NCBI GenBank assembly: GCA_963771465.1
Contig: CAVYTU010000005.1
Span: 32,001-96,000 of the forward strand
DNA length: 64,000 nt
Reading direction: 5' to 3'
Source of the DNA: an uncultured delta proteobacterium
Lineage (GTDB): Bacteria > Desulfobacterota > Binatia > UBA9968
The notes beneath the pieces were generated by a model, which was not told where the DNA came from, searched no databases, and saw nothing but the letters and a program-made list of their open reading frames with translations. Every line of letters starts with the position of its first letter. Position 1 is the first letter of the stretch. This document shows positions 2,072 through 63,394 of the stretch, piece after piece. Position numbers and translations under genes: made by a program.

Positions 2072-3100
2072 CTACACCTTCAGCTCTTTCTTCAGCTCCC
2101 TAATAAACCGCCAGTCCGTGCCCTGCGCAATGATCTTCTGCGGGCTCGACTTGATCATGCCAATCTCGTGCAATTGTAGCGAGTAGAACCGTATCGTGTC
2201 CGCTGGATCGTATTCTCGCCAATGCCCGTAGCACATCGCCATCTCATTCATAGTTTGAAGAGCGTACTTGAAGTTTGCCGTGTAGCCTTTGTCGACGAGA
2301 AACCGAGCGACTCGCTCCGGTTCGCGGGCGCAGATGTCGGCTGCTTTCATAAACGCGCGCAATGCCCGTTTGGTAGCGCCAGGGTACCGTTTAACAAAAC
2401 TTTTGTTTGCGGTAACCATGCAGCAGAAGTAGTGAGACCACGGGCGATCGACCATACTGTTGAGAATGACGTGACCAATCTTCTTTTCCCGTAGTTCTTG
2501 TGGCTCCGGCGGAAAACCAAGCAGAGCGTCGATCTTACCTGCAGCGAGAAGTCGTATTGCCTCAGCGCCAGGATGGACAACCCAATTGATGTCTTTAGTG
2601 GGGTTTAAACCGACGTAGGCTAGTATCGTGGAAAGAAAAATATGCTGGCTCGATCCCATCTCGATTACCGCCACGGTCTTGCCTTTGAGGTCGCGGACCG
2701 CGCGGACTCGATTGGTACCAAAGAGTTCAAAGCATCCCACGTGGGCCCCAGCCAACATTACGATTGGATCCCCAGCGTCTATTCGGATGATATTCGGGGC
2801 AGCGAAGTGGAAGCCAATATCGATCTCGCCAGCGGCCAGTGCCGTCTCAATGTCTCTGGTCCCCGGTATCTTGGGGTACTGCACATCAGTAAAGCCCTCA
2901 GCCCGCAAGATTTCTTCCGCGAGGTACTGCGGAGCCGAGCAAATGCCAGGCTTCTGGTATAGCCTCACCCTAGTGGTCTCCGGCGGTGGCTCAGCGGCCA
3001 GCGAGTCGCGGTGTAGCCCGAAGAGAGCCGCAGTTCCTGCAAGAGTCGCCCCTTTTAGAAACGCCCTCCGATTCCAGCCTTGAGATCGTTGACCACTCAT
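2072..3100 (-). CDS. NMT1/SsuA-like ABC substrate-binding protein, Tat signal
   Basis: NRRAFLKG twin-arginine signal; DLKGKTVAV motif. Confidence 0.9.
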   Translation of the reverse strand: MSGQRSQGWNRRAFLKGATLAGTAALFGLHRDSLAAEPPPETTRVRLYQKPGICSAPQYLAEEILRAEGFTDVQYPKIPGTRDIETALAAGEIDIGFHFAAPNIIRIDAGDPIVMLAGAHVGCFELFGTNRVRAVRDLKGKTVAVIEMGSSQHIFLSTILAYVGLNPTKDINWVVHPGAEAIRLLAAGKIDALLGFPPEPQELREKKIGHVILNSMVDRPWSHYFCCMVTANKSFVKRYPGATKRALRAFMKAADICAREPERVARFLVDKGYTANFKYALQTMNEMAMCYGHWREYDPADTIRFYSLQLHEIGMIKSSPQKIIAQGTDWRFIRELKKELKV

Positions 3101-3338
3101 AACAACCTCCCTCCAATCAGTCTCTCGTTGATCGGACCCGCCAAGCCCAGGTCGCGCACTGTGTCTAAGCTAGCTGTCAATCCGTTGTTCATCTCCAATC
3201 GAAAGCGAGTATAACCTTGACTGAACCGCAAAATAGATGCCGCCCTAACGTTTGCTAAGACTGATTGCAGAAAACGTGGATTAGCGAATAAATTTCTTAC
3301 GCCATGATCGATCTGATCCACGACTGTAGAAACAAGAG

Positions 3339-29225: not shown

Positions 29226-30203
29226 CTACTTTCCGGCGTTAACTTGTCGGACAAAGCGATCGTCGAAAAATTGTGAAGGCTTGGCTGATTTCGCTTCGGG
29301 GATCGATTCAGCGAGGAAATCCAACATGCCTTGCAGTCCTGGTTCCGAAGTGACCAACTCCCGGCGAAAGCCGGCCTTCTTGTAGAATTCGTAACTGCGG
29401 TCGAGCACTTCTTGGTCGGTTTCCTTGGCGTATTTGGCGATGACTTTCACGGCGAACTGCTTGTCGGCGTAGAAACGATCGATGCCGGCGCGCACGGCGC
29501 GAAGCATCGGCACGAGCCGAGGGCCGAGCTCGTCGAGGCGGCTTTTTCGCACGACCAGGCCGACGTTTTGATAAGGCTCACCGATGAGACTGACTAGTGA
29601 GCGGAAACCGTCGCGTTCCATCTTGAAGCTGGCGGGCGGCGAGCCGACGCCGCCGGCGATCTGTCCGGCATAAAATGCCGCGACGATCTGCGGGCTGCTA
29701 CCGAGCGGGCGAAGCTGTACGTCTTTCGGCGTCAGTCCCAGTTTTTTGAGCGCGACTACCGTGCCGTAATAGACCGGTGTCGCCGGACGATCGGTGCCGA
29801 CGATTTTGCCTTTCAGTTGCTCGACATTTTTGATTTCCGGGCGCACGTAGAAATCCCAGATCATCGTATTCAGCAGTCCGGCGATGAATGTGACGTCGAT
29901 GCCGCGCAAGGACGCCGTCAACACTGGTGCAGCCGAGACCTGCACGACGTCGATCTCATTGGCGATCAACGCGGGGATTGCGCTGGTCGACTGCATGGTG
30001 AGAACTTCGATGTCCAAGCCTTCTCTGGCGAAACCGCCTATCTCTTTCGCCATCCACACCGATGCCATTGTCACCGTTGTGCTCAGGTAAGCGATGCGCA
30101 AAGGCCGGTTTGGGCGACTCTGCGCATGCACTTGCGGTGTCGCGGTGACGACCGGGACTAGCGAGAGAACTATTAGGAACAAGGCTTTCGGATATCCGAA
30201 CAT
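29226..30203 (-). CDS. NMT1/SsuA-like ABC substrate-binding protein
   Basis: Start MFGYPK after SD GAGGT; QLKGKIVG. Confidence 0.9.
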   Translation of the reverse strand: MFGYPKALFLIVLSLVPVVTATPQVHAQSRPNRPLRIAYLSTTVTMASVWMAKEIGGFAREGLDIEVLTMQSTSAIPALIANEIDVVQVSAAPVLTASLRGIDVTFIAGLLNTMIWDFYVRPEIKNVEQLKGKIVGTDRPATPVYYGTVVALKKLGLTPKDVQLRPLGSSPQIVAAFYAGQIAGGVGSPPASFKMERDGFRSLVSLIGEPYQNVGLVVRKSRLDELGPRLVPMLRAVRAGIDRFYADKQFAVKVIAKYAKETDQEVLDRSYEFYKKAGFRRELVTSEPGLQGMLDFLAESIPEAKSAKPSQFFDDRFVRQVNAGK

Positions 30204-30438
30204 TAAGTCACCTCGGACGACTAATCGCGAATCTAATGCACTCTGGTCAGGTTGGCCGGTAAGATAGGGCAGGTAGCTCCTGCCGGTCAAGCCTACTAGC
30301 GGTTGGCGGGTGGCCAATGTGCCTTGCAACGGGTGCAAATACGCTCAACGTCGCACAATTCGGTGCGCTGCCGATGGCCGGACGGTACAAATAGCTCCGA
30401 AATTTCCTGTTTGTTGCCACTTTCCGTGGTTTTATTCT

Positions 30439-30454
30439 GGGCACGGGCCTTGCT
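30439..30454 (+). promoter_or_regulatory. sigma54 -24/-12 promoter
   Basis: GGGCACGGGCCTTGCT, GG-N10-GC. Confidence 0.65.
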
Positions 30455-30566
30455 CAATTGGTGGCTGAGAGATAGACCGATGGAGCGGTCAAACAAGTCG
30501 ACCCGTTAACGATTTGAGGTCGTAACCGTCAATGAGTCAGGTGAGGACAAAATTAGGAGGTGTTTT

Positions 30567-30728
30567 ATGAGTGACACTTCAAGACCACTTATAGCTCTCG
30601 GTTTTACCATCCTGATGTTGATTGGTCTGTTGGTCTTCGATCCAAGGCCGGTACGCTTTGCTGCGCTCGCGGGCGATAGCGAATCGAAAGTTACTGAGCT
30701 CGGCCTGCGCTTTACTATGCAACGTTAG
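30567..30728 (+). CDS. 53-aa single-TM small protein (below ORF-track cutoff)
   Basis: SD AGGAGGT; MSDTSRPLIALGFTILMLIGLLVFDPRPVRFAALAGDSESKVTELGLRFTMQR*. Confidence 0.6.
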   Translation: MSDTSRPLIALGFTILMLIGLLVFDPRPVRFAALAGDSESKVTELGLRFTMQR

Positions 30729-30783
30729 TCTGGCTGTCCGATACTCGCCGCGTTCACCGATCACGGCGTTTCGTTCTCGTTAG

Positions 30784-31780
30784 TTAAAACCGGCCTTCTT
30801 TCTCTAGTTTTCTAAGCACGCTGTCGTCGATCAATTCTTCAGCTTTTAACCGGCGAATCTTTTCATTGGTTGTGCCGAGCAGGCGGATCACGTTGCGAAT
30901 GCCGTCGACGCTTGGATAAATTTTCTTGTCATAGATTGTCGGCAAGCTTTGATAGCCTTCCTCGGCGTCTTCGAGCCGCGGCAGACGCATGCCTTTAGCA
31001 ACGGCGCGGATCACTTCAGATTTGTTGGCGGGATTCCTGATAAAAGTCACCGCGTCGAGTAATCCTTTGAAAACACTTTCGGCGGTCGCCGGTGACGACT
31101 TCATGAAGCTGCGCCGTGAGATCAGCCCCGAGCCTTGGTAGGCGATCGGCAGCTTTTCTACGTCGGCGAGCACCGTGTAGCCTTTGTTTTGTAGATTCTT
31201 TCCATGCGCATAACCGACCAGGACGGCGTCCACTGTGCCGGCCATGAAACCTTGCACCATGACGGTTTGATCGCCGAGTGAACGAAACTGTATTTTGTCA
31301 CGCTCCGGCGACAGGCCCCAGTGATCGAGCGTGAGCATGGAAAAAATCCAGCCGCCGCCGCTCAGGCTATTGACGCCGACGCTTTTGCCTCTCAAGTCAG
31401 CCGGAGTTTTGATCTTCGGATGAGCCATGAACATGCCAGTGAGCCGGTTAATGAAGCCGGCGACGAAAACTAGCTCTGCGCCTTCGGCGATGGCGCCGAG
31501 ATTGGCGCCGGACACCGAGCCCCAGTGAAACTGCGATTCACCCGAGCTGAGCGCGGCCATGCCGATGGGCCCGCTGCGCGTCTGGACGAAGTGTACGTCG
31601 ACACCGTATTTGCGGAAGTAGCCTTGCTCCTGCGCGACATAGATCGCCGCTTCACGCTCGCTCACCGAGCCGGTGGTGAGCAGGACTTTGGTGAGCGGCG
31701 CGGCCGCGTCGAGCGGATTCAAACGGAGCCGCAAGAATCGAGGGACACAATTAGCAATCCAAATGAACGAACCATCATCG
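30784..31780 (-). CDS. NMT1/SsuA-like ABC substrate-binding protein (5' end frameshifted, start approximate)
   Basis: YVAQEQGYFRKYG; DLRGKSVGV. Confidence 0.85.
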
Positions 31781-31814
31781 CAATAAATCTCCGTTCAACT
31801 CGCAGGATTTCATT

Positions 31815-32810
31815 TCACTTGATCAACTTGGTCGCGCGGGCGAGCAACTCCGGCGGAATCGTTAGGCCGATCTGCTTGGCTGTTTTCAGATTGACGACAA
31901 ACTCGAACTTCATCGGCTGCTCAACTGGTAGATCGGCAGGCTTCGCGCCCTTGAGAATTCTGTCGATGTAGTATGCGACGCGCCGGTAGCTGTCCGCTTG
32001 GTCCGCCGCGTAGTACATGAGCCCACCAGCATTTACATATTCACTTCTGAGGTACATCGACGGCAACCGGCTCTTTAACGCCAAGGCCCACAATCCGTTT
32101 TTGGTTAGCACGTCATTAGCGGGCTCGCGAGCACGTAGAGTCCATCCGGGCGCTGCTTGTTCAGCGCAGCGAATACCTTCTCGAAACCGTCCGCATCTCG
32201 TAGCTCCCAAGGCTGAATAGTCAACCGCAGCGCACGCGCCGCGGCTGGGAGAACCTCTTTCAGCTCGAGTGCACTGCCCAGAGTAGCCGGATCGTAGAGA
32301 ACCGCGACACGGGCAAGTTTCGGAACGGCTTCTTTGAGCAGCTCCAGCCGCTTCCCGCCTAGGTCTCTGGTAAGGTTTGTAATGCCGGTGACGTTGCCGC
32401 CAGGACGGGCAAGGCTTTCAATTAGGCCCGTCTTGACAGGATCGACCCCAGCGCCCACCATAACGATAGGAATCGTCTTGGTCGCGTTCTTGGCCGCCTG
32501 GACCAGATCTGGCCCCGCCTGCTGCCACGATGATATCGACCTTGAGACGCACCAGCTCGGCCGCAAGCTCAGGAAACCGATCCCGCTTCCCCTCCGCATA
32601 TCGGTACTCGATGGCGATGTTCTGTCCTTCTATGTAGCCACGCTCGCGCAGAGCCAGCCGAATTCCCTTGGAACGGGTGGACTCACTAGCTGGATCGACA
32701 TTTGATACATACCCTATCAGAGGGACTTTCTTCGGCTGCTGCGCCCGGGCTGGAAAGGGAAGAGCCAAGAGTATCGAGCAGAAAGCTCGCCGAGTGATTC
32801 TGGTTTTCAT
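31815..32810 (-). CDS. ABC_sub_bind (Trp/Tyr-type) substrate-binding protein, frameshifted
   Basis: GYIEGQNIAIEYR, SLARPGGNVTG, GAKPADLPVEQP..F..NLKTAK. Confidence 0.85.
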
Positions 32811-32833
32811 TGGGTTGCTCACGTTACAGACGA

Positions 32834-32916
32834 ATGGAGTGTTGGAGTAATGGAGTATTGGCATGTGTCCGGACCAATCACTCCATCACTCCAATACTCC
32901 ACTATTCCATCACTCC
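32834..32916. repeat. 8-bp periodic inverted repeat (TGGAGT.. / ..ACTCCA)
   Basis: atggagtgttggagtaatggagtattgg ... ccaatcactccatcactccaatactccactattccatcactcc. Confidence 0.85.
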
Positions 32917-32922
32917 GCCTTC

Positions 32923-33484
32923 TCACGGCGTATTTTGCACCACCGGACGATTCAGCAACCGGTTCATCCAAGCTTTGACAATGGGTATGTCATCGCCAAT
33001 CGTCGCTTGATAGCGTTCGAGCCGGCAGAAGAACGGGATGTAGGTGATGTCGGCCAACGAGTAGTCGCCGGCGATAAAATCTTTGTTGCGCATCTCTTGA
33101 TTCAAAGTCGCCAGATGTTGCTTCATCTGTTCTTTGGACTTTTCGACTTGGTAGTCGTGCGCGACATTACCCGCGGCCGGCTTGTAAGCGCGTGTTGGCG
33201 AAGTCGATCCAGATGCGCGCCCGCGCCCGTTGGTAGGGATCTTTCGGCATCAGCGGTATCGCGGGAAATTTTTCCTCCAAGTATTCATCGATGATCGCCG
33301 ACTCGTAGATCACTGCATCGCCATCTTCCAACACGGGGACTTTGCCGTAGGGATTGCGCTCGAGCAGCTCTTTCGATTTGTTCTTCAAGTCGCACTCGAT
33401 GAGATCGTATGAGATGTTCTTTTCGGCCAGGACAATCCTTGTCCTGTGGGCGTAGGGTCAAGGCTGATAGGAAAACAATTTCAT
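32923..33484 (-). CDS. Glutathione S-transferase, probable selenoprotein (UGA at codon 9); frameshift ~33180
   Basis: SD GGAGGT; MKLFSYQP-UGA-PYAHRTRIVLAEK...NPYGKVPVL...YESAII; C-domain FIAGDYSLADI. Confidence 0.85.
33428..33446 (-). promoter_or_regulatory. Putative bacterial SECIS hairpin
   Basis: CAGGACAA-GGA-TTGTCCTG begins 11 nt after the UGA at 33460-33458. Confidence 0.75.
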
Positions 33485-33732
33485 GATTCACCTCCGTGGT
33501 TAAAGTTTAGTCGACGAGCCATTGGCAACGAATATAGGGGAGGCAGTAGACAATAGGCAACCGAAAAGGCATGGGGCGAGAGGCATGTAGTCATGGCCGC
33601 CGCTTTCAGCAAATTTCTTGGTGCGCGTAAAATAGGGCAGACAAACTGCGGCGTCAAGGAGAAATCTCCCCGCTATCGTTGTCTCGTTACGCATGTTTGT
33701 GGTTTAGAAATGAACCAGAGGAGTAACCAACA

Positions 33733-34773
33733 ATGCTGTTACCATTTCGTGAACACTTAGACTTCGGACCGACGCCGTATGATTTGCTGCAACAGAAAGA
33801 AGGAATTCCGATCGTCAAAGGCAATGTCGTTAAGGACGTGACGACTTTGGAGCTGGGCCATTGGCAGCGCATGGGCGTTCCCGGTTGTTATATAAACTTA
33901 TCCAACCAGCAGCGGACCGATGCTTACGTGTGCGAGATTCCGCCGAGCGGCCAGAGCTTGCCGCAGCGCCACCTCTTCGAAGAAATTGTTTATGTCGCCA
34001 AGGGACACGGTGCGACCTCGGTATCGCAGGAGGGCACAGCGAAGGTGACGTTCGAGTGGGGACCGGGGGCGATCTTCGCGATCCCGCTCAATTCGACCTA
34101 CGTGCACTTCAACGGCTCGGGCAACGAGGTGATCCGTTTGTTTGTCGGCACGACTTGTCCGGCCATGATCAATATTTTTCACAATGAGGATTTTATCTTT
34201 CGCAATCCGTTCAACTTTCGCGATCGCTTTCACGAGGGCGATGAGTTCCTTCGTTACAACAAGCATGTGACGGATCGCTACTGGGAGACCAATCTGGTTC
34301 CCGACGTCAACCAATTCCCGCTCGACGATTTTCCGATGAAGGGGAAGAACGTCAAGCATATGCGCTATACATTGGCGGATACGACCTACGGTTGTCACGT
34401 GTCGGAATTCCCCGCGGGCTGCCGCAGCACGTTTCACCGTCACGGGCCCGGCGCTGTCATCATCATCACGCAGGGCGAAGGTTACGTGGTGTTGTGGAAG
34501 GACGGCGAGGAGCGCCAGCGCCATGAATTTCAAGTCGGCACGGTGTATTCGCCCGACGATCTCATGTGGCACGGCCATTTCAATACTGGTACGGGGACGA
34601 TGCGCCACTTCGCCATGCGCGGCGACAGCCCGAAATACAGCCACGACCGCTTTCGCAATCCGGCCTGGACGATGATTCCAATGAGCGACGAGGACCCGGC
34701 GATCCAGCGAGAATACGTCGAGATTCTCCAGCGCAAAGGGGTGAAAGCGGCGCTGCAGGTGGTGGAAGACTGA
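33733..34773 (+). CDS. Bicupin protein (gentisate-dioxygenase-like fold)
   Basis: QRHLFEEIVYV..G.G; FHRHGPGA; WHGHFN. Confidence 0.8.
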   Translation: MLLPFREHLDFGPTPYDLLQQKEGIPIVKGNVVKDVTTLELGHWQRMGVPGCYINLSNQQRTDAYVCEIPPSGQSLPQRHLFEEIVYVAKGHGATSVSQEGTAKVTFEWGPGAIFAIPLNSTYVHFNGSGNEVIRLFVGTTCPAMINIFHNEDFIFRNPFNFRDRFHEGDEFLRYNKHVTDRYWETNLVPDVNQFPLDDFPMKGKNVKHMRYTLADTTYGCHVSEFPAGCRSTFHRHGPGAVIIITQGEGYVVLWKDGEERQRHEFQVGTVYSPDDLMWHGHFNTGTGTMRHFAMRGDSPKYSHDRFRNPAWTMIPMSDEDPAIQREYVEILQRKGVKAALQVVED

Positions 34774-34777
34774 AGAG

Positions 34778-35238
34778 AATTAAAAATGCAAAATTAAACA
34801 TTAAAAAAGGGGAGGCGACCATGGAATTAAATAAGGCGCCGGCCATTACGGTGAGATGCTTCGATTTTGCCGTCAACGTCGTTGCTTCTGTCAAAAACTC
34901 GACACGAAGCCGGGAGTAAGCCGGATTTTGAGTCGGCAGCTTCTACGATCTGGCACCTCAGTGGGAGCGAATGTCGAAGAAGCACAAGCCGCGCAAAGCA
35001 CCGCGGACTTTGTCAGCAAATGTTCGATCTCACTCAGAGAAGCCCGCGAATCAAATTATTGGCTGCGATTGTTGGAAGCCTCGGGCGAAAATGCAAGTGA
35101 TGACCTCAAGCTCTTGGCGCGTGAAGCGGATGAACTATCACGTATCATCGGTACGATCATTGTCAAAACTAAGAACCGGCGAAAAGATCAGTAAACTTGC
35201 TTCCCCTTTTTTAACTTTTAATTTTGAATTTTTAATTA
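34778..35238. mobile_element. Putative cassette: four-helix-bundle gene enclosed by ~41-bp inverted repeats of 7-bp units
   Basis: Left arm 34778-34818 matches the reverse complement of right arm 35197-35237 at 36/41 by eye. Confidence 0.6.
34821..35194 (+). CDS. Four helix bundle protein (TIGR02436/23S-IVP-like), frameshift ~34885
   Basis: R.FDFA..V; QLLRSGTSVGANVEEAQAAQS.ADF.SK.SISLREARES.YWL.LL. Confidence 0.9.
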
Positions 35239-36381
35239 TCTCAGCGGCAGCTCCTCCGCCTTCAGTCCGAACCAGTTCTTGGCATTCTCACCCAGGACGT
35301 GTCTCAGCTTGTCTTCCGTCATACCGGGGATTTTTCTTACTTCTTTAACCGAGTCGGGGAATTCGGAATCCCAGTGGCGGTAGTCGGAGGCGTACATGAC
35401 TTGGTTGATGCCGATGGTGTCGAGCACGTAGGGCAAGATCGCTTCTTCCGGCTCGCAGGTGAAGGCAACTTGCGAGCTCTTGATGATTTCGGACGGTTTG
35501 CGTTTGAGCAGCGGCCACTGTGGGCGGAGCTTGTGAAAATGCTCGTCCAATCTTTCCGACCAGAATGGCAGCCAGCCGCAGGCGCCTTCCATGAAGCCAA
35601 CTTTGAGTTTGGGAAAGCGGTCGAACACGCCTTCGCCGATCATGTGCATGAGTGCGATCATTAATTCAAAAGGGAACGCGGTCATGTGCACGTAGCTGTA
35701 TTTCTCCATGCGCTCGCTGCCGGCGCCCATAACGCCCCAGACACCGTACTGGCCGTCATGTTCGGTTTGTGGATGGACCGACAACGGTATGCTCAGGTCC
35801 TGCGCGGCGGCGTAAACCGGATCGAACATGCGGTGGCCCAAATTGATGCCATAAACATTGGTCGGTAGCATGGCGGTGACGATGGAGGCGCGCTGCTTGG
35901 CGAGAAATTCCAACTCCTTCACCGCCGCCGGCGGGTCTTGCACCGGGATTAGACCAACACCTTTCAAACGTTTCGGATCAGGGGCGAGATATTCTTCGAC
36001 TAACCAGCGGTTGACGGCGTGGCATAGGACCGCGGCGAGCGGCTTGTCGGCCATGCCGTTAACCATCAACGCGATCGAGGTGCCGAAAATGATCGCGACA
36101 TCGATGCCTTCCTCATCCATGTCAGGCAAGCGCTTGAGTGGGTCGGTCATGCCCGGCCGGCTGCGTTCGATGTGCTCGGCGAAAACTTCGCCGCGATCGG
36201 CGCCGCCGCCCCAACGGCGTCGGCCGGCGAGGCGGCCTTCGATCATCAAGTGGGAATAACCGGAACTGTCGGTGACGCGGTTGGGCGCGAGATGGGCCAT
36301 TTCCTTCGGCATCCACTTCGCCAATTGATTATCCGGTTCGTAGCAATGTCCGTCGGCATCGATCACGAAGTTGGACGTCAT
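35236..36381 (-). CDS. Amidohydrolase-2 family protein
   Basis: IDADGHCYEP; RLPDMDEEGID; MYASDY.HWD. Confidence 0.9.
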   Translation of the reverse strand: MTSNFVIDADGHCYEPDNQLAKWMPKEMAHLAPNRVTDSSGYSHLMIEGRLAGRRRWGGGADRGEVFAEHIERSRPGMTDPLKRLPDMDEEGIDVAIIFGTSIALMVNGMADKPLAAVLCHAVNRWLVEEYLAPDPKRLKGVGLIPVQDPPAAVKELEFLAKQRASIVTAMLPTNVYGINLGHRMFDPVYAAAQDLSIPLSVHPQTEHDGQYGVWGVMGAGSERMEKYSYVHMTAFPFELMIALMHMIGEGVFDRFPKLKVGFMEGACGWLPFWSERLDEHFHKLRPQWPLLKRKPSEIIKSSQVAFTCEPEEAILPYVLDTIGINQVMYASDYRHWDSEFPDSVKEVRKIPGMTEDKLRHVLGENAKNWFGLKAEELPLR

Positions 36382-36537
36382 AAATTCTCCTTTTTTGGCC
36401 GGGCGAGATTTTGTTTTCTTCCTAGTTGGGTTCTGCAACAATTGCAACTGAAACGATTGCGCGGGCGGCTAGTTTCTGGTTAGCAAGGATGGAGTAAGTG
36501 GATTCACCGCGGCGGGAGCATTGGCGGAGAGGAAATT

Positions 36538-36966
36538 ATGAAACGAACGATTGTTGCGCTGGTTATGTTGCTATTGGTCGCCGAGGGCGCTCAAGCGGCG
36601 TGGCTTTTGTGGAGGCATAGCCTGGTGACCCGACGAGTCGAGGGAACACCGCGCGGGCTTTTACCCGAGGGTAACGTTGACAAATGGGAATTGCTCAATG
36701 CGGTCGATCTGCGCAAAGAATGCGTCACGGCGCTCAGAGCTGACCATAAAAAGAGCATCGACAATTTAACGGCGGTCTATCCCAACGAGCCGGTATCACA
36801 ATCGATCATCGCCGATGGAGTCAGTGCGTCGGTATCCGCCGGCGCGGAGAAAAGCGGCGGCGGGCCATCGGCGCGCACGACGCAGCTTTATTATGAATAC
36901 ACTTTTTGGTGCCTGCCGGCGGGAGTCGATCCAAAACTCATCAAGCCCGTCCCCGAGAGAAAATAG
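36538..36966 (+). CDS. Secreted hypothetical protein
   Basis: Sec signal ...AQA|AWLLW; C-terminal CLPAGVDP. Confidence 0.7.
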   Translation: MKRTIVALVMLLLVAEGAQAAWLLWRHSLVTRRVEGTPRGLLPEGNVDKWELLNAVDLRKECVTALRADHKKSIDNLTAVYPNEPVSQSIIADGVSASVSAGAEKSGGGPSARTTQLYYEYTFWCLPAGVDPKLIKPVPERK

Positions 36967-37055
36967 CCGGGCGCAAATTCCTTGGAGAAGACTGGAACCG
37001 TTCGGTCATACCTTTCTACTACAGTTATCGCGCCGCGCCGAAAGCGTAGCTGAAG

Positions 37056-38092
37056 CTATTGACTGGCCGGCGCCAGCGCATAACCGGTACCGGCTTTGGG
37101 CAGGCCGAACTGACAGCGGGCAAGCAGGAAGCGGTCGAACTCCTGATCGGTGGAAAATTTAAATCGCACCGCGTCGCTTTGATGCCATAATTCGCGCGAC
37201 GGCACTTGGCATTGATTGCACCGGATGCCATTTTCGCAGTTGGCGGCCGGCGCGGCCAAAGTGGTGATGGTTGCCGTGGTGCCGATGCGCGGATCGGCGC
37301 CGCGCGCGTTGGCACGCACGACGACGCCTTTGCCGCCGTATTCGATCACCGGGAAATTGCGCGCGCGTCGATCCGGGTTCAAATCCACCGGCGCTTCGGT
37401 TAGCACGCCGCTGAGTATTTCATGAGTCTGGGCGTTGAATTCGACTTCTTCGCCGGTCGGCAAGGTGACGAGATTTTTACCGTTGAAGTCGACGATCGCC
37501 GGCAGATAGTTGCGCGGGAAGAAATGCAGCAAAGTAAGCATCAACTCGCTCAGACGAAACTGCCGGTCACGGGACGCCACCCAATCGGTGACGAGTAGGT
37601 GAATGTCCTGGCGCGCCCGCTCGTCGAAACGAAACTGATAATCGCGCGTGTAAAATTGGTTCTTGGCGGCGTCGCGGCGCGGCGTCAAGACGGGATTGCC
37701 GCCGTGGTTGGAAAACTCAAAACCGACGATGGTGCCGTCGCGGGTGCGCCGGTATTGCCATCTCGATTTCTGCGCCGCAGCGCCGGTTCTCGTGCTGACC
37801 GTGGTGTTGTATTGGAGCTTGGGAGAGGCCAGTTCTTTTTGCGGCGCGGCGATGATCGACTCGGGCAGCAGTCTGGGAATCGATGGCAGGACGATTTCGG
37901 GAACGATTTCGGGTATCGCTTCGGGAATCTTGGCGATCTCGACTGGAGTCGTCGTTTCGGGGGTTTGACTAGTTTGTGGTGCATCCGTGCTGGGTGACGA
38001 CGGCAGTGGAGTTTGTTGGCAAGCCATAACGGCCATCGCCGCACCAAGGCGGTTAGCGCAGCACCGAATCGATATCGTCGAAGGCCGTTCAT
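37056..38092 (-). CDS. Hypothetical lipoprotein (5' frameshift likely)
   Basis: 326-aa ORF beginning AVMAC plus Pro/Thr-rich linker; upstream MNGLRRYRFGAALTAL in adjacent frame. Confidence 0.6.
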
Positions 38093-38130
38093 CATTTCAC
38101 TCGCTCACGTCGCCATAGTGTGCCCGTTCT

Positions 38131-38862
38131 TCAACGGCTGCGCAACGCGAGTGGGGCGAGTTGGCTGGCGAGATTGCCGGCGGTGATGACCGTGCGCGGC
38201 GATACCGGGACAGCGGCTGCTTCCAACACCTCGGCGACCCACGTGTTGCAGGTCCGCAAGAGGCTAAATTTCGGCGTTGCCGGATAAAACCGACTGTGGG
38301 GATAAAGGCCCGGTGCCGCCGGCGCGCGGTTGGCGCCTTGGGCTCGAAGAAAAGTTTTTGACAGCGATTCCACCAATCGATTGAATGCGCCGAGGGATAA
38401 TCTGAGTTCGATAATCTCTGCGCCGCGGTAGGCTTGCTCCAGTGTGCCGCTGAAGCCAACCAAGTGAATCACGCTGCCGCTGGACCACAGGGCTGCTTTG
38501 ATGGCGGCAAAGAATCCTGAGTGGGGATCGGGAAAGTAATCCTGGTCGCCCCAACTAAATTCGATGAATTCCGCGCCGGGGAAGTCAGCCGATTCCGGGA
38601 GCTCAGCCGGAGCGATATCATTTTTACTGAGCACAATGGCCGCGTGCCACGAGTCGTGTACGATGAAGAGTGATTTGCACGACGGTTTTTCGGCTTCACA
38701 GGACCAATCCGCCCAAACCTCCGTTGAAAACAGCAGCAGCCACAGCGTGAGAATCCCCATGACGGAGAACGCTGCAATCGGTCGATCGCGCCAAGCCACG
38801 CTTCCAGATAGCCCGCGAGCCGCCGTGAAAGCAATCTCCTCGGCGGTTTCGTCCGGGCTCAT
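38131..38862 (-). CDS. DUF2459 domain protein
   Basis: WHAAI, FSWGD..YF, RFYPA...F....TCNTWVA; start uncertain. Confidence 0.75.
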   Translation of the reverse strand: MSPDETAEEIAFTAARGLSGSVAWRDRPIAAFSVMGILTLWLLLFSTEVWADWSCEAEKPSCKSLFIVHDSWHAAIVLSKNDIAPAELPESADFPGAEFIEFSWGDQDYFPDPHSGFFAAIKAALWSSGSVIHLVGFSGTLEQAYRGAEIIELRLSLGAFNRLVESLSKTFLRAQGANRAPAAPGLYPHSRFYPATPKFSLLRTCNTWVAEVLEAAAVPVSPRTVITAGNLASQLAPLALRSR

Positions 38863-38989
38863 TGCGAGCGTTACACACTTGGCCTTGATTCCGATGATTC
38901 ATTGGATGGCGGGCAAAAGACCGAAGTGCTGCGCCTTAACCATGGACCGGTTTTGCCGAGGGCGAGCCGTCCGAAGAAATGGCCTCGCT

Positions 38990-39195
38990 GCAAGGTCGTC
39001 TTTGAGATCGCGCACGCATTTCTTGTAGAACGCCGACGACATAATTTCGATCGCTTCGAAGCCGGCTTGGTCGAGCCGCTCGGCGATCGGCAACATCACG
39101 CCCGTGCGCATGTTGGAAGCCCACAGGCTGAGCTGGCCGTCGCGCAGCGTCGTGTCGACGAAAAAGATTTTGCCGCCGTGATTGGCTTCCTTCAT
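38990..39195 (-). pseudogene. Truncated pyruvate carboxylase B / oxaloacetate decarboxylase alpha-type carboxyltransferase (N-terminal ~67 codons)
   Basis: FVDTTLRDGQLSLWA.NM...LDQAGFEAIE...LKDD, then similarity stops abruptly. Confidence 0.75.
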
Positions 39196-39209
39196 GGTTT
39201 CAAGAAAGC

Positions 39210-39282
39210 GATGGGCGTGATGGAATTCTGGAGTGTTGGAGTCATGGGTTGCCGAAACTCCAATTCTCTATCACGCCAATTC
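39210..39282. repeat. 8-bp periodic inverted repeat (TGGAGT family)
   Basis: ggcgtgatggaattctggagtgttggagtcatgg ... actccaattctctatcacgcc. Confidence 0.7.
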
Positions 39283-39284
39283 TT

Positions 39285-39614
39285 TTAGTCGAGGTTGACG
39301 TAGAGCCTGATCCAGTTTGTCGGCGTGGCTGTGTGGCCCTGACCGGTGGTGTCTTCGGCGAGAAAAACGTCGCCGGGATAAAAAGTTTTGCTGCTGCCGT
39401 CGCCCACACCGATGGTGACGCTGCCGGTGAGCGTTACCACCCACCGGCGCCTTGGCGCGCGGTGAAAGTTGACGATATGCGGCGCGAAGTCGTCGCGAAA
39501 TAAATGGCTTGTCGCAGGCTTGGTCTCGTTTAAAAATGGCGCCGCTTTGGCCCCATCCAATTCCTCGAAATGCGATTGGCCGTCAGCACCGGCATAGAGT
39601 CGATAGAACTGCAT
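39285..39614 (-). CDS. Small cupin-like protein (paralog of 61957-62286)
   Basis: GADGQSHFE, HRAPRRRW, PGDVFLAEDTTGQGH. Confidence 0.85.
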   Translation of the reverse strand: MQFYRLYAGADGQSHFEELDGAKAAPFLNETKPATSHLFRDDFAPHIVNFHRAPRRRWVVTLTGSVTIGVGDGSSKTFYPGDVFLAEDTTGQGHTATPTNWIRLYVNLD

Positions 39615-39721
39615 CGTTGTCCCTCCAGCAAAATTGCTGCTGAATCTGTAACATCAAAGCGCGCCGCCGTGCCAGCGGTGAAGAGAATTCGATGGGAAAA
39701 GTTAAGTGGAGGGATAGTGTA

Positions 39722-39754
39722 CGGGAAGAGGCGGCAGGTCGCCGCATCTTCCCG
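39722..39754. terminator. GC-rich hairpin downstream of small ORF (terminator- or REP-like)
   Basis: CGGGAAGAgGCGGC aggtc GCCGCaTCTTCCCG; no clear U-tract. Confidence 0.45.
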
Positions 39755-39769
39755 GCAGTCTTTAGCCTG

Positions 39770-39874
39770 TTAAGAAAGGAAAGTGGACTGAAATACGCCC
39801 CAAAGGGTGTAAGCCACCGTCAGCCCCATGGTGCCCCAGATGATGAGTTTTAACCAAATCGGAAAGTCTTCCAT
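39770..39874 (-). CDS. 34-aa single-TM peptide
   Basis: SD GAGGAG; MEDFPIWLKLIIWGTMGLTVAYTLWGVFQSTFLS*. Confidence 0.65.
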   Translation of the reverse strand: MEDFPIWLKLIIWGTMGLTVAYTLWGVFQSTFLS

Positions 39875-39998
39875 GTTGATCTCCTCGGAAAGCGCTGCGC
39901 GCACTCCTGTTCTGTATGACTTGAGATGAGCGGTAACGTCTCGCGCAGCCATAGGAGCGAGACGAACCTCAGCTAAGGTCGGCGGCGGGATAGGAAAA

Positions 39999-40310
39999 TT
40001 AGATGCGCCAAACGGCGTGCCACTCAAAGATCGGCACGCTGTGGCGATGGGAATGTTGCGGTTGGTACAGACTCGTGACGAATGCTAACTCTACGAGTCG
40101 CTCAAGCGCTGGTGCCGCTGCCGCGATCGCGCTCAGGAAAAGAACGCTGTGATCGGTGTCATCGCATTCCGCGTATTCGGTCAGCCTGCTCGGTTGAGCG
40201 GCGACAACCATTGACCGGATGCCGTGTTGATTGGCGCTGAGCAGCGCGCTTTGGTTAACGGCAGCGAAAGCGAAAAGTAAAGCTATGACGACGCGACCCA
40301 TAATTGACAA
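39999..40310 (-). CDS. Hypothetical protein with N-terminal TM and His-rich C-terminus
   Basis: Hydrophobic N-terminus; ends HSHRHSVPIFEWHAVWRI. Confidence 0.45.
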   Translation of the reverse strand: MSIMGRVVIALLFAFAAVNQSALLSANQHGIRSMVVAAQPSRLTEYAECDDTDHSVLFLSAIAAAAPALERLVELAFVTSLYQPQHSHRHSVPIFEWHAVWRI

Positions 40311-48187: not shown

Positions 48188-48254
48188 CGTTCAAGGGTTC
48201 AAGAGTTCAATCAGGGCAAGAGACATTGAATTTTTGAACCCGTGAACTTTGCAC
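48188..48254. repeat. GTTCAA periodic inverted repeat
   Basis: gttcaagg gttcaaga gttcaa ... ttgaattt ttgaaccc gtgaactt. Confidence 0.7.
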
Positions 48255-50643: not shown

Positions 50644-53037
50644 TTGGCAGAAACAATCAGTCATGAATCCGCTCTCGGTCATCTTCGCGTCATCGAGCTT
50701 GGCGATATTCCGGCGTCCTACGCGACGCGGCAGCTCGCCGATCTCGGCGCCGATGTGATCAAAGTCGAACCGCCGGGCGGCGATCCCAATCGGCTGCTGC
50801 CGCCCTTCGCCGGCAACATCGAGCATCCCGAGCGCAGCCTGACGTTCATCAACGCGAATACCAACAAGCGTAGCATCGTCCTTGACCTCGAGCGTGAGTC
50901 GGATCGGGAAACTTTTTCGAAATTACTTGCGTCAACCAATCTGTTTTTCGAGGCGACGCCGCTTGGCTATTTGGAAAAGTTCGGTTTCAACGACGAAAGC
51001 CTAAGCAAAGACTTTCCCGGATTGGCCATCGTTTCGATCACGCCCTTCGGCCGCACAGGTCCCTATCGTCACTATAAAGGCAGCGACGCCATCGCCAACG
51101 CCGCCGGCGGATTTCTTTACGGCCAGGGGGATAACAACAAAGGCCACTGTACGGCGCCGAGCCATCTCGCTTATCAGATGGCCGCCACCATGGCGGCATG
51201 GTTGGGCCTCGCCGCGCTGCGTCATGCGCGCGTCACCGGCGCCGGACAGCGCATCGACATCTCGCTGCAGGAAGCCTTGACGTTCGCCAACAGCAGCAGC
51301 ATCGCGCGCTATTCGCGCGAGAACCGTTTGGAGCGGCGCCCCGGTGCCAAAGCATCCGGCGGCGCCGGGACGAATATTTATCGCTGTAAAGATGGCCGCT
51401 ACGTGCACTTCACCACCAACATGCCGCATATGTGGAAAGAGTTTGCGCAAAACTGGATGACCGACAAAAAGCTCGCCGGACCGGAGTGGGAAAACCCGCG
51501 CTACCGCGACGCGCATGCGGCGGAAGTGGCGCAAGGGTTCGCCGAGTTTATCGGCCAGTTCAACGCGGATGATTTCGCCAACCAGGCGCAAGCGCGCCAC
51601 CTCGCCGCCGCGCCGCTCAACACCATCGGCCAGTTCGTCGACTGCGAGCAAATCCGCGCGCGCGGGTGGATGCAGGAGATCGACCATCCGGTGATCGGCA
51701 AGTACAAAGCGCCCGGCGCGCCCATGCGCTTGTCATTGACTCCCATGCGCGTGCGCCGGCCGGCGCCATTGCTCGATCAGCAGCGAAACGAGATTTTGCT
51801 TGAGCTTGAGAAACAGCTAGCCAATAGCGCGAAAGTAAACGGTGAAAATGCTCGCGCTCCAATGCTTGCGGGTCTGCGCATGGCCGATTTGACGCAGCAA
51901 TTCGCCGGACCGCTGGGAACCGAATTACTCGCTTACTATGGCATGGAAGTGGTGAAGATCGAGACTGGCACGATTGCGAGCAAAGAGCGCGAGGCGGCGG
52001 TGCATGCGTGCATGAACCGGGCGAAGCTCGGTTGCACGGTCAATCTGCGCAATGCCGAAGGTAAAGAATTATTTAAGCAGTTGGTGGCTAAGTCCGATGT
52101 CGTGGTCGACAATTTCAGCTCCGGTGTGCTTGAACGATTAGGCTTCAGCTTCGATGTTTTGCAGCAGATCAATCCTGGCATCGTTCAAGCCGTGATGCCG
52201 GGTTGGGGTCTGACCGGGCCGCTAAAAAGGTGGGTCGCCTGGGGTTGGCAGCTGCTCGCTTACACCGGCATCATGCGCTTGTGGGGTTATCCCGACTCGC
52301 CCATGGAAACGCGCTGCAAGATCGCGTGGCCCGACCGTGTGGGGTCGGTGACGATGGCGCTTGGCGTCCTCGCCTCGTTGGAATATCAAGCGCGTACCGG
52401 CAAAGGACAATTCATCGAGGCCGGCATGCTCGAAGCGCAGGGCGCGATGATGGGGCCGGCGATTCTCGATTATACGGTCAACGGCAATGACTGGGATGCC
52501 ATGGGTTACGGCGAAATTCTCGGCCAAGTTTATGCGCCCTATGGTGTGTATCCGTGCAGTGGCGACGACAGTTGGATCATCATCGCCTGTGCGAGCGATG
52601 AAGAATGGCAGAGCATGGTCGGCAGGATCGGCAGATCGTCTTGGGCCGCCGACGCTAAATTCGCCACCAAAGCGGGCCGCGCGGAAAATCGTACGGAGCT
52701 TGATCAAAACCTTTCTCAGTGGACGCGCAAGTGCACGGCGAAGCAAGCCTTTCGGTTGCTGCAAGAGTCCGGCGTCGCCGCCGGAATTCCATCTTCCGGT
52801 GAAGACCTCTTTCACGACATCCACCTGCGCGCTCGCAGCCACATCGTCGAGACCGAGGCCCAACCTTGGGGCAAGATCACCCATCACGGCTTGCCGGGAA
52901 TTCCTTCTCTGTCCGTGGCCAATGCTGCTAGGGCTGCGCCGTGGATTGGCGTGAACAACGATCAGGTGTTTGGCGAGATACTCGGTTTGAGCACCGAGAC
53001 GATTGAGGAACTGAAAGCGCGCGAAGCGATCAAGTAG
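50644..53037 (+). CDS. Family III CoA-transferase, two fused CaiB/BaiF domains
   Basis: LADLGADVIKVEPPGG, NKRSI.LDL; second domain G.EVVKIE, WPDRV. Confidence 0.9.
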   Translation: MAETISHESALGHLRVIELGDIPASYATRQLADLGADVIKVEPPGGDPNRLLPPFAGNIEHPERSLTFINANTNKRSIVLDLERESDRETFSKLLASTNLFFEATPLGYLEKFGFNDESLSKDFPGLAIVSITPFGRTGPYRHYKGSDAIANAAGGFLYGQGDNNKGHCTAPSHLAYQMAATMAAWLGLAALRHARVTGAGQRIDISLQEALTFANSSSIARYSRENRLERRPGAKASGGAGTNIYRCKDGRYVHFTTNMPHMWKEFAQNWMTDKKLAGPEWENPRYRDAHAAEVAQGFAEFIGQFNADDFANQAQARHLAAAPLNTIGQFVDCEQIRARGWMQEIDHPVIGKYKAPGAPMRLSLTPMRVRRPAPLLDQQRNEILLELEKQLANSAKVNGENARAPMLAGLRMADLTQQFAGPLGTELLAYYGMEVVKIETGTIASKEREAAVHACMNRAKLGCTVNLRNAEGKELFKQLVAKSDVVVDNFSSGVLERLGFSFDVLQQINPGIVQAVMPGWGLTGPLKRWVAWGWQLLAYTGIMRLWGYPDSPMETRCKIAWPDRVGSVTMALGVLASLEYQARTGKGQFIEAGMLEAQGAMMGPAILDYTVNGNDWDAMGYGEILGQVYAPYGVYPCSGDDSWIIIACASDEEWQSMVGRIGRSSWAADAKFATKAGRAENRTELDQNLSQWTRKCTAKQAFRLLQESGVAAGIPSSGEDLFHDIHLRARSHIVETEAQPWGKITHHGLPGIPSLSVANAARAAPWIGVNNDQVFGEILGLSTETIEELKAREAIK

Positions 53038-53046
53038 TGTCACTTA

Positions 53047-53864
53047 TGAGTAGCAAAGGATCAGACCGATCCGACGGACACCGGCGGCTGAGGCCGAGCG
53101 GTGGTTACCGTGAGTTACGCAGCTTTCAGGTGGCCACGGTGATTTATGATGCGACAGCGTCGTTCTGTGACCGGTTTGTCGACAAGCGTTCGCGCACTCA
53201 CGATCAAATGGTTCAGGCCGCGCGCAGTGGGCGACAGAATATTGCTGAGGGTAGCAGAGCTGCAGCGACGTCTAGCGAGACCGAGCTGCGTCTAGTGAAC
53301 GTTGCGCGCGCTAGCCTCGATGAGTTGCTGCTGGACTATGAGGATTTTCTACGACAACGAGGAAAGCGTCAGTGGAGTAAAGACGACCGAGAAGCTCGCG
53401 AGGTGCGCGCTGTGGGATCCAAAAGAGATCGAACGGATCAGTCTGATCGGACCGATCCGACGGATCATTGGAAGGCTTACTGCCGCTGGCTCGATGCCGC
53501 AGATGCCGCGCTCGTTGCGAATACAGTGCTCTGTCTGATCCACCAGGCGAACTATCTGCTCGATCAGCAGATCGCTGGGCTGGAGCGCGGGTTTGTTAAG
53601 GACGGCGGCTACACGGAGAAACTTGCTGCCGCACGATTGGCCGAGCGGCAGCGACAGAAAAAAGATCGGACCGATCCGTCGGATCAGACTGATCAGTCGG
53701 GACTCTTAGTTAGCGCGCCAACCTGCGCGACTTGCGGCAAGACGATGGTCGTGCGCACCGCCCGCAAAGGGGAACTCGCCGGTTCGCAGTTTTGGGTTGT
53801 TCAGGTTATCCCGAGTGCAAAGCTACGCGACTGTTTGAAGAATCAACCTGAGGCAGCCTGTTAA
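53047..53864 (+). CDS. Four helix bundle protein with suffix domain and topoisomerase-type C4 zinc ribbon (frameshift ~53795)
   Basis: GGYREL.SFQ, RTHDQMVQAARSGRQNIAEGS, ARASLDELLLDYEDFLRQ, GGYTE.L; CATCG..M..R...FW(G)CSGYPEC. Confidence 0.9.
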
Positions 53865-55701: not shown

Positions 55702-55720
55702 AAAACTCCTTCAGGGAATA

Positions 55721-55797
55721 ATTGGAGTACTGGAGTGATGGAGTTCTGGAGTATTGGGGTCCGGAACGCATCACTCCATCACTCCAACACTCCAATT
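55721..55797. repeat. 8-bp periodic inverted repeat (TGGAGT family)
   Basis: attggagtactggagtgatggagttctggagtattgg ... catcactccatcactccaacactccaat. Confidence 0.85.
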
Positions 55798-63273: not shown

Positions 63274-63384
63274 ATTTTGGATTTCCAATATTGGATTTTG
63301 GATTGACGGATTAGGAGATGCCGGTGCAAGTGTAACAACCTGTGCCGGCATTTTTCCGATAATCCAAAATCTAAAATCCAAAAT
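63274..63384. repeat. 7-bp periodic inverted repeat (TTGGATT / AATCCAA) around an inner hairpin
   Basis: attttggatttccaatattggattttggatt ... atgccgg..ccggcat ... aatccaaaatctaaaatccaaaat. Confidence 0.85.
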
Positions 63385-63394
63385 GGGGGAAGTG

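Follow-up and report, generated by a model that had tools for sequence, protein, structure and literature searches.

In REP/REPIN systems with RAYT genes, a gene is flanked by inverted short repeats that also occur as scattered gene-less hairpins, and the repeat families are lineage-specific. Diversity-generating retroelements encode Avd, a small, basic four-helix-bundle protein, and the PF05635/TIGR02436 family is said to share its fold. This family, which was first met inside intervening sequences of rRNA, is very large and has no established function, and its genes have been read as partners of their neighbours, for example in cas loci, where Zhang and Ye described 18 wedged 23S_rRNA_IVP genes (PMC3936711). 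Among the open reading frames of rRNA inserts, a preprint on CPR rRNA insertions also names this family. In Coxiella burnetii the 23S rRNA intervening sequence (IVS) is 428 nt long and has a 28-bp stem, with tandem GACAGAT heptamers before its open reading frame; RNase III cuts it midway along the stem in vitro, and the paper treats the heptamers as a local feature of this IVS (PMC4990558). ORF-bearing IVS of Leptospira are cited in the same paper. Heptamer arrays have been reported by Rehm et al. as GGGAATC in Xanthomonas and GGGGA(C/T)T in Nostoc, and 70-75 convergent heptamer pairs of Xanthomonas can form stem-loops (PMC4692102), while MacGregor described TAACTGA direct repeats in Beggiatoaceae (PMC4679880). 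A term search of the texts of the latter two papers found neither "intervening sequence" nor "four-helix" in either and no "S23" in PMC4679880. We found no description of heptamer-armed cassettes of this gene family outside rRNA in a literature search that was thin on subscription journals and covered articles without their supplements.

The locus described here lies in a stretch of 64,000 nucleotides, referred to below as the window, and consists of a gene of this family enclosed by inverted arrays of 7-nt units between convergent cupin and amidohydrolase genes (Table 1). A reading of the locus made from its sequence only had noted arms of four AATTAAA-type heptamers that match at 36 of 41 positions. 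This was borne out, with an inverted repeat of 43 nt per arm, 38 of 43 positions complementary (88%) and 382 nt between the arms, the longest among 33 inverted pairs found in the 64-kb window. The four units of the left arm are followed by AAAGGGGAGG. As that reading had it, the left arm begins close after the cupin stop (1-5 nt downstream) and contains the Shine-Dalgarno sequence of the gene (GGGGAGG, 34809-34815), and the right arm overlaps the stop of the convergent amidohydrolase gene (TAA, 35236-38, - strand). The element occupies the entire spacer from stop codon to stop codon. Just one of the two G-U pairs claimed for the + transcript was counted in ungapped register, G34814 with U35201; the other four mismatches are G-A, G-A, C-U and A-C. 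No target-site duplication is visible in the bases outside the arms (CTGA on the left, CAGC on the right). The 24 ORFs scanned (window 23908-46666) gave no match to a transposase family, in line with the sequence-only reading, or to a reverse transcriptase family; no Rfam family matched in window 30000-40000, and no sigma-70-like promoter was found in 34500-35500. Orthologs of the bicupin gene in same-genus genomes are 78-88% identical in DNA. Using one scoring scheme, the inverted-repeat score of the locus is 30.5, whereas 230 window positions of the same geometry reach 9.0 at the median and 13.0 at most.

Table 1. Features of the locus and cargo-less hairpins in the window (window positions)
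Feature	Positions	Strand	Remarks
Cargo-less hairpin	32836-32916		8-nt TGGAGT-type units
Bicupin gene (346 aa), left flank	33733..34773	+	Cupin_2 and Cupin_1 matches; stop TGA 34771-34773
Left arm	34774..34816		7-nt units 34778-34805; pairs with right arm in both RNA folds
Four-helix-bundle gene, N-terminal fragment (helix 1)	34821..34919	+	ATG 34821; stop met after frameshift
1-nt deletion (frameshift) site	34884..34888	+	Placed by ortholog alignment; DNA contigs agree with the window
Four-helix-bundle gene remainder, -1 frame (helices 2-4)	34886..35194	+	Stop 35192-35194; TIGR02436 match
Right arm	35199..35241		Carries amidohydrolase stop and last codon
Amidohydro_2 gene (403 aa), right flank	35236..36447	-	Amidohydro_2 match
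Cargo-less hairpin	48189-48247		8-nt GTTCAAG-type units
Cargo-less hairpin	55720-55797		8-nt TGGAGT-type units
Cargo-less hairpin	63274-63387		7-nt TTTGGAT-type units

In profile searches the enclosed gene matches TIGR02436 with 78.1 bits (cut-off 24) and PF05635 with 61 bits (cut-off 33.8). PF05635 is its sole Pfam match, hence it is not a REP-associated tyrosine transposase. The long ORF 34856-35194 covers only positions 23-108 of the 109 positions of the TIGR02436 profile; positions 1-22 are encoded in another frame, and a complete four-helix reading frame is absent. An intact ortholog of 126 aa (TIGR02436, 92.9 bits) is found in the sister species G020. Residues 9-21 of the frame from 34821 align to residues 10-22 of this ortholog, and residues 11-109 of the other frame align to its residues 24-122 (62 of 99 identical). 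Because the two frames match consecutive parts of the intact protein, we place a 1-nt deletion near 34884-34888. An A5 run near 34893 was considered as the frameshift site and rejected, the ortholog alignments putting the deletion at the former position. The deletion is also present in contigs of two DNA runs from different studies, X1 record 2 (34054-35017), which has no gaps over this range, and X2 record 28 (34591-35179), which is without one further base at 35081. One of these runs could be the sample behind the window assembly, but even so an error private to one assembly does not account for the frameshift. The gene at this locus is a pseudogene, broken by a 1-nt deletion that the sequence-only reading overlooked. 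Of the conserved family motif GxxRxxxSxxxNxxE (PMC3936711), RSGTSVGANVEE keeps the spacing of R, S, N and E, with Q in place of the leading G. Among solved structures, 2RLD comes closest to the ortholog (E = 4.8e-21), with a weak match to Xcc0516/2GSC. The four-helix-bundle proteins are basic, with pI values of 9.3-9.7.

A check on the flanks of TIGR02436-family genes for periodic inverted repeats, suggested by the sequence-only reading, found them clearly enriched. For each locus, 260 nt surrounding the start of the gene were compared with 260 nt surrounding its end, and the best local inverted match gave the score; the 99th percentile of 276 controls, displaced by 700 or 1000 nt inside these loci, was 14.1. 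Flanking inverted repeats exceeded this value in 58 of 80 relatives and in 3 of the 276 controls. The arm period, taken as the best autocorrelation lag among those from 4 to 12, was 7 in all 58 loci. Arms have a median length of 30 nt, corresponding to about four to five units, and loops a median length of 398 nt. Many of the 22 relatives below the threshold still have short heptamer arms. The 80 loci sample one protein subfamily (53-65% identical), because a six-sequence protein alignment was too diverse and a three-sequence alignment was used to retrieve them; their hosts belong to Cyanobacteriota, Verrucomicrobiota, Acidobacteriota, Nitrospirota, Thermodesulfobacteriota and no fewer than nine other named phyla. 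In a replicate on further loci of the genus, 19 of 21 passed the threshold and all 19 had a lag of 7. The present locus and its orthologs, three loci of one unpublished genome, one already-counted locus of the window's own genome and four matches without a returned locus were left out of this replicate.

Six TIGR02436 matches were found in the window's own genome (G000), and four of them pass the threshold of 14.1: the present locus (30.5), L005 (31.0), L003 (20.0) and L002 (15.5). L001 falls just below with 14.0, although either end of its gene has an array and the two are inverted (GTTCAA/TTGAAC). The sixth match has its arrays inside the reading frame, and contig C7 holds a seventh, truncated copy, likewise within heptamer arms. 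Unit sequences vary from copy to copy among these loci. The heptamer-armed layout is a property of the gene family and not just of the present locus.

The sixth match (window 53037-53864, +) is a gene of 275 aa that combines a partial TIGR02436 match (residues 28-98) with a TIGR04258 four-helix-bundle suffix domain (67.9 bits). It carries three in-frame arrays of 9-nt GATC-type units, at the N-terminus, in the middle and at the C-terminus, whose translations are DRTDQSD-like repeats; the third array runs in the opposite direction to the first two. In the truncated copy (C7:32511-33268) the heptamer arms enclose only the first ~45 residues of the four-helix-bundle gene. An ArsR-like gene comes next and is bracketed by two copies of a 21-nt palindromic repeat.

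The arms of the 58 loci were sorted into three unit classes, AAAAGKN (23 loci), AAAATNN (14) and GAATNNN (21), which were defined after the arms had been seen. On the protein tree, which is short (116 columns, quick method) and in which relatives share labels, arm class needs 7 changes, compared with a shuffled mean of 26.9, and was as low in 0 of 200 shuffles. When only the 51 rows whose phylum is named are kept, the number of changes is 6 for arm class (shuffled mean 23.3, minimum 18) and 16 for phylum (shuffled mean 33.2). Loci of the GAATNNN class, from at least 8 phyla, form one side of a branch (SH-aLRT 83). These comparisons show the gene together with its arms behaving as a single heritable unit, with arm type tracking the protein tree over the host phylum. 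The result for arm classes is one of clustering, not of co-evolution, and would fit joint transfer of the gene and its arms.

Periodic hairpins are also abundant without this gene. A TRF-based census of the own genome, counting pairs of same-unit arrays within 1.5 kb, replaced an earlier census with a harsh mismatch penalty that gave 10 arrays only. At period 7 it lists 43 inverted and 8 direct pairs, at period 8 it lists 8 and 2, at period 9 it lists 9 and 7, and at period 6 it lists 27 and 27. Loop lengths at period 7 are bimodal, 38 of the 43 inverted pairs having loops of at most 99 nt and 5 having loops of 400-629 nt. A four-helix-bundle gene or remnant lies in four of the five long loops; the fifth consists of two separate arrays around an ordinary gene. 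The genome has about 50 cargo-less short-loop hairpins with 7-9-nt units. According to simple ORF calls, the neighbours of 51 short-loop hairpins are co-oriented in 43 cases, convergent in 4 and divergent in 2, and the other 2 hairpins are located inside ORFs; gaps to the flanking ORFs have medians of 6 and 10 nt. The hairpins are therefore mostly inside transcription units. Arm length, at ~25-30 nt, appears steadier than unit number across 7-, 8- and 9-nt units, given a detection floor of 20 nt. Each unit type of the gene-bearing elements of the genome is also found as cargo-less hairpins, and three abundant hairpin families have no gene-bearing copy there.

A second kind of cargo was found in the same type of arms. 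The only GxxExxY gene of the genome (TIGR04256, 150 bits; C11:237047-237493, L007) is enclosed by 29-nt arms that are 93% complementary and built of 9-nt CACGAAG-type units. Such units also form about twenty short-loop hairpins, and identical 30-mers at five places on five contigs suggest that these hairpins have multiplied recently. Within the window, the ABC_sub_bind gene at 32105-32864 (-) is apparently split over two frames (ORFs 32105-32599 and 32418-32864), and its upstream ORF starts inside the first hairpin of Table 1; the hairpin arm is thus translated at the N-terminus.

The sequence-only reading took the cargo-less periodic hairpins for relatives of the cassette; they are real. At unrelated loci some of them are 94-100% identical to the right arm over 31-34 nt, a closer match than that between the gene and its ortholog (~73%). 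Among 31 genomes of the genus, 6 contain a 29-nt core of the right arm with at most 3 mismatches, at 16 places in all (3 in the own genome, 6 in G009, 2 each in G024, G044 and G045 and 1 in G008), and the reversed pattern used as a control matched once each in G008 and G044. Among the recurrences viewed, one is a solo arm in the own genome; the others form hairpins with short loops at unrelated junctions, and one of these shows identity over 32 nt. G020 and G003, which hold the orthologous cassette, are without this arm variant. Their own arms differ yet pair mutually, and arms thus appear to shift with the hairpin family of the lineage, faster than the gene. A search for the G020-type arm family in five genomes returned a diffuse AT-rich set.

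The solo right arm (C17:47977-48008, L115) is identical at 31 of 32 positions and lies between two genes with no matching left arm; its flanks are also present in metagenome contigs. Another hairpin of the right-arm family, cargo-less and at about positions 1501-1534 of locus L105 in G008, ends precisely at the ATG of a downstream gene with no intervening Shine-Dalgarno sequence; the product of this gene presumably begins like PurD. Contig joints connecting 34806/34807 to 35208, with 11-16 other letters between, were considered as empty alleles and rejected, the joint sides being only 24-25 letters long; they are probably cargo-less hairpins of the same arm family elsewhere. In X15, one loose end marks a contig with a left flank other than the cupin gene.

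Comparison of the amidohydrolase junction among sister species suggests how the cassette came to its present state. The amidohydrolase-gene tree groups the own genome with G024 and G009 (support 100/99), G020 with G003 and G017 with G012; it was built without an outgroup, and gain and loss are not separable with certainty on it. G020 and G003 carry the orthologous cassette beside the amidohydrolase gene (~73% DNA and 62% protein identity), with an ABC substrate-binding gene and not the cupin gene as left neighbour. The same left neighbour is present in G017 and G012, together with a cargo-less hairpin of GAGGAT-type heptamers. In G024, which has the highest amidohydrolase-gene identity to the window (89%), the neighbour is the cupin gene, and the ~160 nt at the junction contain hairpins of 9-nt units but no gene. 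G009 also has the cupin neighbour, with a frameshifted gene of the same subfamily in opposite orientation and AAAAGG-type arms; the left arm of this cassette plus ~12 nt is duplicated in tandem (L010, locus 2720-3280). Other neighbours and no cassette are found in G015 and G006. At the amidohydrolase junctions the element spans stop codon to stop codon in every case. In the simplest history, a common ancestor had the cassette, which was later replaced in G024, was inverted or replaced in G009 and decayed here.

No sign of recent transposition of the present copy was seen, which is common to at least two sister species beside the same amidohydrolase gene. Being shared with sister species at ~73% identity and a pseudogene, it is old, partly syntenic and not freshly spread. 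The spread between gene junctions proposed by the sequence-only reading is supported insofar as sister species differ in holding a cassette at orthologous junctions, and does not describe the present copy. A search for empty-site alleles, which it had recommended, gave cassette-less junctions and no clean empty site defining the element ends in the sister species compared, where the whole spacer differs. That reading had set against itself a stably syntenic gene around which flanking repeats are not enriched; the enrichment is strong, and synteny is partial, with differing sister junctions.

Two further junctions, of sensor-kinase-like/regulator-like genes, hold a TTTGGAT-armed cassette in sister species, the first junction in G015 and the second in G011, G046 and G022. 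The own genome has just ~80 nt and no cassette at both, and one of these ~80-nt stretches apparently includes a right-arm remnant of one and a half units. About a dozen cargo-less TTTGGAT-type hairpins were found in the own genome and no gene in such arms; the same hairpin family carries a four-helix-bundle gene in at least 7 sister species.

At the RNA level, a 488-nt stretch folds with its arms paired in both the minimum-energy and the centroid structure (-158.8 kcal/mol, z = -3.97), and 1 of 100 shuffles folds as well. This model predicts that the cassette would loop out of a transcript. An RNA-library contig (34665-34853) bridges the 3' end of the cupin gene, the left arm and the gene start without difference, a weak hint of read-through transcription, with DNA carry-over possible. 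The RNA runs consist of contigs, which are blind to RNA ends and strand, and two RNA libraries have no contig over 34903-35207. Across the arms of the 58 loci, mismatches comprise 61 G-U, 47 A-C and 214 others. Since this is no excess of sense-strand G-U over A-C (p = 0.21), selection for sense-RNA pairing specifically is unsupported, and a DNA-level or strand-neutral constraint on the arms fits equally well. Arm identity is 0.89 in register, the register being chosen as the best, and 0.77 when shifted by one unit. Part of the arm complementarity is a by-product of both arms being arrays of one unit.

We lean, with some confidence, towards the locus being an old, decaying copy of a widespread IVS-like hairpin cassette, here between two protein-coding genes. 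The cassette consists of one PF05635/TIGR02436 gene between inverted arrays of about four 7-nt units and has no sigma-70-like promoter of its own. On transcription by read-through from a neighbour, its arms are predicted to pair to a stem of ~40 bp closing the 382-nt loop. By analogy with the Coxiella IVS, RNase III may cut this stem; the cut would free the cassette RNA from the mRNAs of the neighbours and render tight gene junctions tolerant of insertions, and the cargo would be left with a message capped by the stem. The cassette may already have been beside the amidohydrolase gene in the ancestor shared with two sister species. The present copy would since have lost its frame and kept intact arms that match a cargo-less hairpin family dispersed in the lineage, and cargo-less hairpins could be what remains, or multiplies, once the gene is absent. 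Against the cassette reading stand the lack of a sense-strand G-U excess, the share of complementarity that arrays of one unit give by themselves, and the three abundant hairpin families that have no gene-bearing copy in the genome. In addition, the identity of the right arm to unrelated hairpins would fit arms that evolve with the hairpin family and not with the gene.

This last point is also part of the case for an unlikely alternative, in which the hairpins came first. Periodic hairpins would then be an independent dispersed repeat or a REP-like operon-spacer element, and four-helix-bundle and GxxExxY genes would home into their loops. The numbers agree with this order of events, as cargo-less hairpins far outnumber cassettes (38 of the 43 period-7 inverted pairs have short loops) and sit in small gaps between co-oriented genes (43 of 51). 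Two unrelated cargo families share one kind of arms, some unit families have no cargo copy in their own genome, and the right arm resembles unrelated hairpins more closely than the gene resembles its ortholog. However, that arm class tracks the protein tree across phyla is unexpected if genes enter any host hairpin. Few members of the gene family are armless, since many of those below the threshold (22 of 80 and 2 of 21) have short heptamer arms, and no near-identical gene pair in different arm types was seen. Complementarity by mere chance between two AT-rich, low-complexity spacers has practically no probability left: the AT-rich and internally repetitive nature of the arms does raise chance matches, but the controls refute this explanation, with a score of 30.5 against a maximum of 13.0 at 230 window positions and with the layout recurring in 58 of 80 relatives despite quite different unit sequences.

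Quite unlikely, in our estimate, is a system resembling REPIN-RAYT, in which the four-helix-bundle protein would bind its own arm arrays and drive or maintain the copying of the hairpins, with the gene-bearing copy as master. The unit type of each gene-bearing element does occur without cargo in the same genome, the TTTGGAT family is cargo-less here and gene-bearing in at least 7 sister species, and the proteins are basic (pI 9.3-9.7). The number of units, about four to five per arm, may also be compared with 2RLD, deposited with five chains, and with Xcc0516, titled as five four-helix bundles. Yet we know of no catalytic motif in the TIGR02436/PF05635 family, the gene is broken here with its arm family conserved, abundant hairpin families persist without a cognate gene in their genome, and arm length is steadier than unit number, a weak point in view of the 20-nt detection floor. 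Descent from a diversity-generating retroelement, the gene being a leftover Avd-type accessory gene, is very improbable. It draws on the fold that the family is said to share with Avd, whereas none of the 24 ORFs scanned around the locus (window 23908-46666) matches a reverse transcriptase, and heptamer arms and the pattern over 80 loci are foreign to such retroelements.

Beyond the IVS-like cassette favoured for this locus, a wider proposal is possible, which we put forward tentatively and with considerable doubt. Hairpins with arms of 7-9-nt units, with or without a tiny gene, could form one large undescribed class of selfish elements, of which the 23S IVS would be the rRNA-resident members and heptamer over-representation largely the footprint. 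An Avd-like PF05635 oligomer would recognise its own arms and promote their copying or retention, and GxxExxY nucleases would do likewise in a second lineage.

If the PF05635/TIGR02436 gene always travels in heptamer-array arms, its neighbours say nothing on its function, the rRNA IVS would be a special case of a general cassette in ordinary operons, and the over-representation of heptamers in bacteria (PMC4692102) would gain a candidate source. The arms point to a candidate ligand for the protein, namely its own arms. Such arrays may also prove useful in annotation, by flagging spacers that change from one sister species to the next between genes that keep their place.

Among known systems, MITEs are similar in their short terminal inverted repeats and in having many gene-less and few gene-bearing copies, but here there is no transposase, no visible target-site duplication, and arm sequences are wholly different between family members. 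With Avd the likeness is that of a small, basic four-helix-bundle protein, the nearest structure to the ortholog being 2RLD; unlike Avd retroelements, the present gene has no reverse transcriptase and no template/variable repeats near it. Published heptamer repeats are likewise intergenic arrays of 7-nt units, and the convergent pairs of Xanthomonas match the cargo-less form, although their unit sequences differ from those of the present arms. As in REPIN-RAYT systems, copies of the present arm repeat are also scattered as hairpins without a gene (16 places, 6 of 31 genomes); in contrast, a four-helix bundle or a GxxExxY nuclease takes the place of the tyrosine transposase as cargo, and the arms are tandem arrays of 7-9-nt units and not a single palindromic REP. 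The present cassette differs from the 23S IVS in lying between cupin and amidohydrolase genes and not in an rRNA helix, with no Rfam match in the 30-40 kb region of the window, and in having arms that belong to a dispersed cargo-less hairpin family. The IVS-like architecture suggested by the sequence-only reading agrees with the published descriptions of such elements, chiefly that of Coxiella, in its PF05635 (S23p) cargo, its terminal-repeat stem of ~28-40 bp, tandem heptamers just upstream of the ORF, a total length of ~430-470 nt with a loop of ~400 nt, and the tendency of the ORF to decay while the RNA element persists.
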